Assembly: GCF_003334355.1 (NCBI RefSeq)
Contig: NZ_QOWP01000102.1
Strand: one strand, 5' to 3'
Length of the DNA: 768 bases
DNA from: Escherichia coli
GTDB taxonomy: Bacteria > Pseudomonadota > Gammaproteobacteria > Enterobacterales > Enterobacteriaceae
Shown piece after piece: positions 2 to 768 of this stretch. Below the pieces are notes generated by a model. That model saw only the letters and a program-made list of their open reading frames with translations. It was not told the origin of the DNA and made no database searches. A program made the translations under genes and the position numbers. The stretch's first letter is position 1. Every line of letters begins with the position of its first letter.

Positions 2-24
2 GGTAATGACTCCAACTTACTGAT
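2..24. repeat. IS1 terminal inverted repeat, right end (IRR) relative to the transposase reading direction
   Basis: Plus strand 2-24 is ggtaatgactccaacttactgat. The reverse complement of 746-768 is GGTAATGCTGCCAACTTACTGAT. The two match at 20 of 23 positions, with mismatches clustered at positions 8-10 (ACT vs CTG). Confidence 0.85.
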
Positions 25-519
25 AGTGTTTTATGTTCAGATAATGCCCGATGACCTTGTCATGCAGCTCCACCGATTTTGAGAACGACAGTGACTTCCG
101 TCCCAGCCTTGCCAGATGTTGTCTCAGATTCAGATTATGTCGCTCAATGCGCTGAGTGTAACGCTTGCTGATAACGTGCAGCTTTCCCTTCAGGCGTGAT
201 TCATACAGCGGCCAGCCATCCGTCATCTATACTACGACCTCAAAGGCCGACAGCAGGCTCAGAAGACGCTCCAGTGTGGCCAGAGTGCGTTCACCGAAGA
301 CGTGGCCACAACCGTCCTCCGTATCCTGTCATACGCGTAAAACAGCCAGCGCTGACGTGATTTAGCACCGACGTAGCCCCAATGTTCGTCCATTTCAGCG
401 CAGACAATCACATCACTGCCCGGTTGTATGCGCGAGGTTACCGACTGCGGCCTGAGTTTTTTAAGTGACGTAAAACCGTGTTGAGGCCAACGCCCATAAT
501 GCGTGCACTGGCGCGACAT
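17..519 (-). pseudogene. insB: IS1 insB (InsB' transposase catalytic portion), disrupted by a frameshift and a premature stop
   Basis: Seen in sequence: two minus-strand ORF fragments, 259-519 (86 aa, [14 protein letters not shown]...[18 protein letters not shown]) and 17-226 (69 aa, [69 protein letters not shown]), lie in different frames. Canonical InsB is about 167 aa in one frame (from memory). The first fragment matches InsB up to ...TVVA and then diverges. My manual translation of the second fragment's frame upstream of 226 gives [30 protein letters not shown], which matches canonical InsB (...[31 protein letters not shown]...) except for a TAG at 227-229 where Trp is expected. This implies a 1-nt deletion near 303-306 (GCCAC where the prototype has GCGCAC) plus a nonsense codon. 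Confidence 0.85.
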
Positions 520-713
520 CCGACGCCATTCATGGCCATATCAATGATTTTCTGGTGCGTACCGGGCTGAGAGGCGGTGTAAGTGAACTGCAGTTGCCAT
601 GTTTTACGGCAATGAGAGCAGAGATAGCGCTGATGTCCGGCAGTGCTTTTGCCGTTACGCACCACGCCTTCAGTAGCGGAGCAGGAAGGACATCTGATGG
701 AAATGGAAGCCAC
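438..713 (-). CDS. insA: IS1 InsA: zinc-finger/helix-turn-helix DNA-binding protein, transposition inhibitor and N-terminal part of the InsAB' transposase
   Basis: Seen in sequence: the 91-aa [94 protein letters not shown] starts at GTG (rc of 711-713) and stops at TAA (rc of 438-440). It has a CxxC...CxxC zinc-finger-like motif (CPSC, CSHC). It ends in LKNSGRSR, encoded by TTA AAA AAC TCA..., as in canonical IS1 InsA. The length and near-identity to InsA are recalled from memory. An SD-like AAGGTG (rc of 719-724) sits 5 nt upstream of the GTG. Confidence 0.93.
454..464 (-). promoter_or_regulatory. Programmed -1 ribosomal frameshift site (A6C motif TTAAAAAACTC) joining the insA and insB' frames
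   Basis: Seen in sequence: the reverse complement of 454-464 is TTAAAAAACTC. In the insA frame it reads TTA AAA AAC (L K N), 6 codons before the insA stop. The insB' frame (the 259-519 ORF) reads LKKLRPQ across the same site. Established knowledge: IS1 makes the InsAB' transposase by a -1 frameshift at A AAA AAC. Confidence 0.85.
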
Positions 714-718
714 GCAAG

Positions 719-761
719 CACCTTAAAATCACCATCATACACTAAATCAGTAAGTTGGCAG
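719..761 (-). promoter_or_regulatory. Putative insA promoter and ribosome-binding site, partly within IRL
   Basis: Seen on the minus strand: candidate -35 CTGCCA (rc of 756-761), a 16-nt spacer, -10 TATGAT (rc of 734-739), and SD AAGGTG (rc of 719-724) 5 nt before the GTG start. Established knowledge: the IS1 insA promoter overlaps the left end and is repressed by InsA binding. The exact hexamers are my assignment, not verified. Confidence 0.4.
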
Positions 762-768
762 CATTACC
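746..768. repeat. IS1 terminal inverted repeat, left end (IRL), adjacent to the insA start
   Basis: The reverse complement of 746-768 is GGTAATGCTGCCAACTTACTGAT, the imperfect inverted partner of 2-24. It lies 33 nt upstream of the insA GTG start on the minus strand. Confidence 0.85.

Follow-up and report, generated by a model that had tools for sequence, protein, structure and literature searches.

A defective IS1F-lineage element at the mdtM/brnT junction of Escherichia coli and its possible mobilisation in trans

Described IS1 elements and the defective copy

Insertion sequences (IS) of the IS1 family are about 768 bp long, end in imperfect terminal inverted repeats of about 23-30 bp that start GGT(G/A)ATG, and are flanked by a target-site duplication of 8-9 bp. 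One member from Escherichia coli K-12, IS1F, is reportedly the type 4 IS1 of Umeda and Ohtsubo (1991), located beside fecI/yjhU. The stretch of DNA analysed in this study (768 nucleotides of contig NZ_QOWP01000102.1 in E. coli RefSeq assembly GCF_003334355.1; hereafter, the window) holds a complete defective IS1 of the IS1F lineage, which occupies positions 2-768 on the minus strand when aligned with an intact 768-bp IS1 and which, at 767 bp, is one base shorter than the canonical element. We consider it probable that this copy is a non-autonomous element that makes no transposase of its own, retains intact cis-acting parts, is copied at a low rate by the InsAB' transposase of other IS1 copies, and exchanges sequence with those copies by conversion in both directions. 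All features of the element described below lie on the minus strand, and their coordinates refer to the window unless they are called IS positions.

K-12 IS1F is 98.96% identical to the window copy and matches it in both ends and in the Trp-to-amber codon of insB'; however, it is found at the chromosomal fec site instead of the mdtM/brnT junction, lacks the 1-bp deletion of the window copy, and encodes an InsA with the substitutions H34P and T52K, neither of which is present in the window InsA. At the fec locus of K-12 W3110 and strain B, IS1F is labelled 'programmed frameshift; internal stop' by the Prokaryotic Genome Annotation Pipeline (PGAP). The window copy shares the A at IS position 542, which creates the amber codon, with the fec-site copies of K-12, strain B and other genomes, and a TAG-specific 55-mer probe, which seeds only where this A is present, matches 3,101 of the 5,426 complete E. 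coli genomes searched in this study. The amber codon is therefore not private to the window copy; it is the older lesion and came with the IS1F lineage.

Over its whole length, the window copy is 99.5% identical to an intact Shigella-type IS1 (e.g., on a Shigella flexneri virulence plasmid; WP_223368647.1), which has the same ends, InsA protein and slip site but retains a G at IS position 465 and a TGG codon where the window copy has amber, and so encodes a full 232-aa InsAB'. Only four differences separate the window copy from this 768-bp relative in the whole alignment. Alignments and translation place the first at 304..305, where the G of GTGGCGCAC that the relative keeps at position 465 has been lost and the frame shifts after InsAB' residue 137, and the second at 227..229, where amber TAG replaces Trp TGG at InsAB' residue 163, as in K-12 IS1F. 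The remaining two, at window positions 591 (in insA) and 233, are synonymous. A first-pass annotation of this DNA had called insB dead, a description that can now be sharpened to two independent lesions, the 1-bp deletion and the amber codon, with damage restricted to insB'. With these two inactivating lesions, the window copy cannot supply itself with transposase.

The same annotation held that everything outside the catalytic part is preserved, and this is borne out by alignment and by the exact positions of the parts concerned. Inverted-repeat pairing places the left terminal inverted repeat (IRL) at 746..768 and the right one (IRR) at 2..24; the 23-nt repeats are 20/23 complementary, and each is identical to its IS1F counterpart. 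Over 30 nt, both ends equal those of K-12 IS1F, and each is one position off IS1A (A for G at position 4 in IRL; position 19 in IRR). A consensus scan, which found three promoter-like sites against 0.5 expected, gave a candidate promoter overlapping IRL (CTGCCA, 16 nt, TATGAT; 734..761), a position that agrees with the published description of PIS1 as 'partially overlapping IRL' (PMC12903888). Downstream, insA is intact at 438..713, an open reading frame with a GTG start whose 91-aa product carries a zinc ribbon and a helix-turn-helix and does not differ from the InsA of the intact sister element, and the A6C programmed -1 frameshift motif, AAAAAAC, is read directly at 456..462, as in intact elements. 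Judged by its sequence, the copy thus appears intact in everything required in cis: both terminal repeats, the promoter-like site, insA and the slip site.

The window copy has its organisation, length, slip site and transposition chemistry in common with consensus IS1 (IS1A/IS1E) and the IS1X2-like mosaics, whose ends are one base off at each side. IS1A is 90.8% identical to the window copy and the IS1X2-like mosaics are 93-96% identical; both are intact, and their annotation includes a programmed frameshift. These are the active multi-copy forms in E. coli and the likely helpers. A functional parallel is provided by miniIS1 cassettes and similar non-autonomous elements, which, as is proposed for the window copy, take transposase from elsewhere and need only two ends in cis (PMC12903888); unlike them, the window copy is full length and carries insA, which should oppose its own mobilisation.

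Published experiments bear directly on such elements. When consensus InsAB' was overproduced in trans, 48 insertions that came from non-consensus elements were sequenced and 44% of them traced back to IS1F, and a miniIS1 carrying just two ends was also moved (PMC12903888). Because the window ends are identical to those of IS1F, their competence as transposition substrates has already been shown by experiment. Intrachromosomal IS1 transposition is replicative, with the donor copy retained (PMC12903888, PMC12428005). As a separate observation, H34P of the K-12 IS1F InsA sits in the second CxxC of the zinc ribbon (W3110, L026:2487-3254). The InsA of K-12 IS1F may be weakened by H34P/T52K, which could bear on the high trans-mobility of this element in the 2025 experiments.

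Copies of the defective allele at other sites

A 50-mer spanning the deletion, which cannot seed on undeleted copies, was found in 369 complete E. coli genomes at 408 places, with at most three per genome. The specificity of this probe rests on the 28-nt megablast seed and was verified with longest-common-substring counts. Of the 408 places, 368 were at the home junction beside brnT, three at the fec site and about 37 elsewhere. In 368 of the 369 genomes the deletion probe was joined to the brnT-side junction, so the parent copy has been kept almost throughout, as fits replicative copying.

Three lineages contain the defective allele at a new site between perfect target duplications. In strain PSS-08-2, a copy identical to the window copy (767/767) has inserted between elfD and elfA, where the 9-bp duplication CAATTAATG borders it at either end; empty sites contain this target only once, no other genome searched has the junction, and the strain has exactly two deletion places, at brnT and elf, whose copies are identical to each other over 767/767 bases. 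In X14-3, another copy identical to the window copy (767/767) splits uidB and is flanked by the 8-bp duplication GGCGTTTG, which is again single at the empty site, with a junction unique among the genomes. In the Res13 clone of pig isolates, a copy splits ydjK between 8-bp duplications CTCCTGTC; this junction is common to six separately assembled isolates. These three would represent new insertions of the defective copy, with insertion of an intact copy followed by conversion as the alternative for some of them. In many other genomes, the elfD-elfA, uidB and ydjK regions carry independent nearby IS1 insertions of other subtypes and appear target-like on a recurrent basis.

Potential helpers were present in these genomes, as the first-pass annotation had proposed to check: IS1 transposase genes annotated by PGAP as intact (programmed frameshift) lie no more than 50 kb from a dead copy in EJN001, Res13, X14-3 and PSS-08-2. 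In the mechanism that we propose, InsAB' from intact IS1 copies in the same cell would bind the ends of the dead copy, which would then be copied replicatively to new sites at a low rate while the parent stayed in place. Gene conversion would also carry sequence both to and from the dead copy as it recombines with other IS1 elements, and InsA expressed from the dead copy may dampen other IS1 copies.

Because conversion between IS1 copies happens, occurrence of the allele at several sites is by itself no proof of mobilisation. It is possible, although distinctly less probable than mobilisation, that the copy is an inert fossil that never moves, and that the other lesion-bearing places are once-active IS1 elements overwritten by conversion, wholly or in patches. 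Several observations weigh against mobilisation or favour an inert copy. In EJN001, the fec-site IS1F lies 31 kb away from the home copy and matches the window allele at 767/767 bases, deletion included (L029:5153-5919), whereas fec-site IS1F copies elsewhere usually have 7-9 differences from it; this appears from its sequence to be whole-element homogenisation or gene conversion, a process that could imitate mobilisation. The deletion is found at the fec site in three genomes in all (EJN001, XJW9B277 and strain 2-331). Strain CH4784 contains a 767-bp mosaic with its own 9-bp duplication GCATAAATG (L032:2062-2828), IS1A-type at its ends (positions 4-127, 293-414 and 749 are of this type) and window-type in between with both lesions included; here, patchy conversion appears to have transferred the defects of the dead copy into another IS1. 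IS1 mosaics are frequent, and the daughter-bearing genomes are rich in IS1F-like copies that are possible recipients, with up to 15 further non-deleted IS1F-like probe matches in PSS-08-2 and up to 29 in X14-3, few of which were typed. The home-site and uidB copies of X14-3 differ by one nucleotide at position 387, as do the resident brnT-site and ydjK copies of Res13 at position 364. The off-site copies in E8 and CP141658.1 have no target duplication, the latter with an extra base that shifts the frame of insA, and off-site places make up only the small minority of the 408 given above. In the laboratory, IS1 transposase shows cis preference (PMC12428005, PMC12903888), and K-12 IS1F alone was immobile, with no movement at native transposase levels (Ord et al. 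2025; PMC12903888, PMC12428005).

Against the inert-fossil reading stand the element ends and the uniqueness of the sites. It has already been noted that IS1F-type ends are good substrates in trans. In addition, conversion requires homology on both sides of the converted tract. It cannot, for this reason, rewrite the outermost bases of an element, and in the elf and uidB daughters the match to the window allele is complete from position 1 onward, including position 4. For X14-3, four 50-kb stretches were sampled, of which two had no IS1 and one had IS1A/IS1B-type copies only; none of the six other IS1 copies typed (three probe-matching IS1X2-like mosaics and three of IS1A/IS1B type) has the base of the window allele at position 4, and each has at least 25 differences from that allele in the first 265 bp. 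An origin of the daughters by conversion would need a recipient with window-type ends at a site unique to one genome, followed quickly by a long conversion tract, that is, two successive events in a short time at both the elf and uidB sites. Based on these comparisons, transposition in trans is the more likely origin of the daughters.

Some variation among the copies is best described in its own right. At position 387, the resident home copy of X14-3 has G, as do most IS1 types, while the uidB daughter and the window copy have T (L047:46613-47379 versus L030:2062-2828); the G may be a short conversion patch acquired by the resident copy after copying. The G/A polymorphism at position 364 (window 405) occurs in all four combinations with the variants at 178/537 among deletion-bearing copies (L031, L033, L037 and L038 versus L001 and L041), a four-gamete pattern that points to recombination between copies or to recurrent mutation. 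In nine genomes or records, the deletion probe matched at 94% identity with three mismatches (H119, H120), which suggests the same 1-bp deletion in a different IS1 background, whether it was brought in by conversion or arose independently. Recombination is visible in the intact elements as well: the multi-copy IS1X2-like forms of several E. coli genomes, one of which PGAP names 'IS1X2 family', are IS1A-like over the first 265 bp or so and IS1F-like downstream (L042:1754-2521; L043:1545-2312; L047:17458-18225, 23059-23826 and 32574-33341), and one PSS-08-2 copy is the reverse mosaic, IS1F-like and then IS1A-like (L048:12815-13582). From these sequences, recombination between IS1 subtypes looks pervasive.

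It is also necessary to consider that the extra copies could be artefacts of assembly or polishing, in which IS1 repeats are homogenised by short-read polishing of long-read assemblies. IS1 occupies 10 to more than 40 places per genome, the allele lies at several contig ends in draft assemblies (L011-L015), one assembly contains N runs at IS1 ends, and such homogenisation could account for the whole-element identity at the EJN001 fec site. Nevertheless, we regard this explanation as improbable, since the other IS1 copies sampled in X14-3 and PSS-08-2 keep distinct sequences, which argues against general homogenisation, and each daughter copy carries all four diagnostic differences. For the ydjK copy an artefact is unlikely because several assemblies agree: all six isolates share the junction, and four of them were seen with two deletion places. 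The assembly in question, CP078557.1, has N runs at the ends of many IS1 copies (L016-L023) and is unreliable for allele calls. Draft-assembly contexts near tsx, xapAB and hicAB were not used, the IS being at contig ends. Two 'plasmid' records with 100% matches were likewise dropped as evidence of movement, both having the chromosomal mdtM-IS1-brnT context.

Mobilisation in trans therefore stays the preferred explanation for the daughter copies. The first-pass annotation had suggested that the element could be moved by transposase from another IS1 copy, and this can be upheld in part: the IS1F trans experiment with identical ends (PMC12903888) and the three lineages with perfect 8-9 bp duplications speak for it, while conversion confounds the genomic evidence and native transposase levels were too low in K-12. 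We give even weight to the further proposition that, in wild E. coli and at natural transposase levels, the dead copy is a live non-autonomous element that has made daughters and that also passes its lesions on by conversion, as to the fec-site IS1F and in CH4784.

InsA and the remains of InsAB'

The window copy is an IS1 family member by descent, but it is a pseudogene. It has the length and imperfect terminal repeats of the family and the family layout of insA, an overlapping insB' in the -1 frame, and an AAAAAAC slip site followed by a frame that is open until the deletion; what it lacks is a continuous InsAB' with a complete DDE_Tnp_IS1 catalytic region. The only frameshift fusion possible is predicted to join 137 native residues to 14 out-of-frame residues, giving 151 aa instead of the 232 aa of intact InsAB' and covering positions 1-130 of 199 of the NF033558 profile. 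Such a product would retain the DNA-binding part but only some third of the catalytic one. The idea that the copy is still autonomous, through amber read-through or other recoding, can be practically dismissed, because the 1-bp deletion lies upstream of the amber codon and shifts the frame into a TGA after those 14 residues. Autonomy by amber suppression is ruled out on the same ground and is applicable only to amber-only relatives in suppressor strains.

Two leftover reading frames, both taken from the list of open reading frames, mark the damage. An 86-aa frame at 259..519, confirmed by translation, follows insB' up to the deletion and continues with the 14 out-of-frame residues and TGA; this allele-specific tag was used to find further sites. 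A 69-aa frame at 17..226, matching NF033558 profile positions 156-199, is the C-terminal insB remnant downstream of the amber codon. It was dropped as an allele tag because it is unspecific, with 12,267 blocks on record that include other IS1 types.

In contrast to insB', insA has been preserved. Its product matches the NF050000 zinc domain at 41 bits (cut-off 28) and positions 1-81 of the NF033558 profile, has PF03811 and PF12759 of Pfam on record for the same protein, retains all four zinc-binding Cys, and has five amino acid differences from the InsA of IS1A. One reading of this contrast is that the copy has been domesticated as a repressor, kept as a source of InsA that quiets other IS1 copies, which would explain an intact insA beside a decaying insB. 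An InsA identical to that of the intact sisters, set against two lesions in insB', is what this reading would lead one to expect, as is the presence of a promoter-like site, and InsA is known to lower PIS1/insAB' transcription up to 16.8-fold and to inhibit transposition (PMC12903888). However, the four differences in all from the intact relative are too few for a test of selection, K-12 IS1F of the same lineage has H34P within the zinc-binding CxxC, one off-site copy has a frameshift in insA, and large IS1 expansions persist in genomes with this copy. Domestication is therefore very unlikely to be the explanation.

The home site at the mdtM/brnT junction

In the chromosomes examined, the element lies in the order mdtM, IS1, brnT-brnA-yjiA-yjiX-btsT. 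The window holds a single base outside the element, at position 1, as the alignment puts the element end at window 2; this base fits the brnT-side flank CGACAGCGA of related genomes. All 768 window bases recur at 100% identity in many E. coli chromosomes, and IS1 matches extend to 74,836 places in 4,971 of the 5,426 complete genomes (median of 11 places per genome); a chance pattern is ruled out by this recurrence and by how widespread the matches are. In the matching chromosomes, the copy is already labelled by PGAP/RefSeq as a pseudogene ('IS1 family transposase; frameshifted; internal stop'). As an IS1F-type pseudogene, it is thus an already known kind of element. No Rfam match was found within the window.

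A flanking target-site duplication of 8-9 bp, which the first-pass annotation had suggested looking for, was absent at the mdtM/brnT copy in every flank variant examined. The right flank is constantly CGACAGCGA. On the left, most genomes have TTAAAATTT, whereas strain 720632, with an inverted left side and a truncated yjiJ, has GTGGATTGC, and amber-only copies at this mdtM/brnT junction have TGGAATCCG. The home-site IS1 accordingly has at least three different left junctions against one constant right junction (L001/L002:3990-4000 and L024:2446-2457 versus L036:3440-3500). In IS-free genomes, the genes directly before brnT encode a restriction endonuclease and a type I restriction-modification (hsd) system. 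The IS1 at brnT would, by these comparisons, mark the edge of repeated deletions or rearrangements of the restriction-modification region. On the simplest reading, the element inserted beside brnT, and more than one later deletion or rearrangement then affected the DNA to its left, with the loss of one copy of the duplication.

Whatever its mobility, the mdtM/brnT copy stably marks a large group of E. coli lineages, being present in 368 of the complete genomes. The present findings carry little weight for biology at large, since IS1, IS1F, the amber codon, repression by InsA and the action of InsAB' in trans have all been described. If the proposed mechanism is true, one dead copy both spreads through and degrades the IS1 population, in contrast to the laboratory, where action in trans needed strong overproduction of InsAB'. 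Two of the daughters disrupt genes, uidB and ydjK, and the third is intergenic, between elfD and elfA. A pseudogene label on an IS is no safe ground for taking the element to be immobile or harmless: if the daughters are genuine, dead copies add insertions, two of them gene-splitting here, and spread their defects, which would matter when IS dynamics are modelled and when strains are typed by their IS elements.

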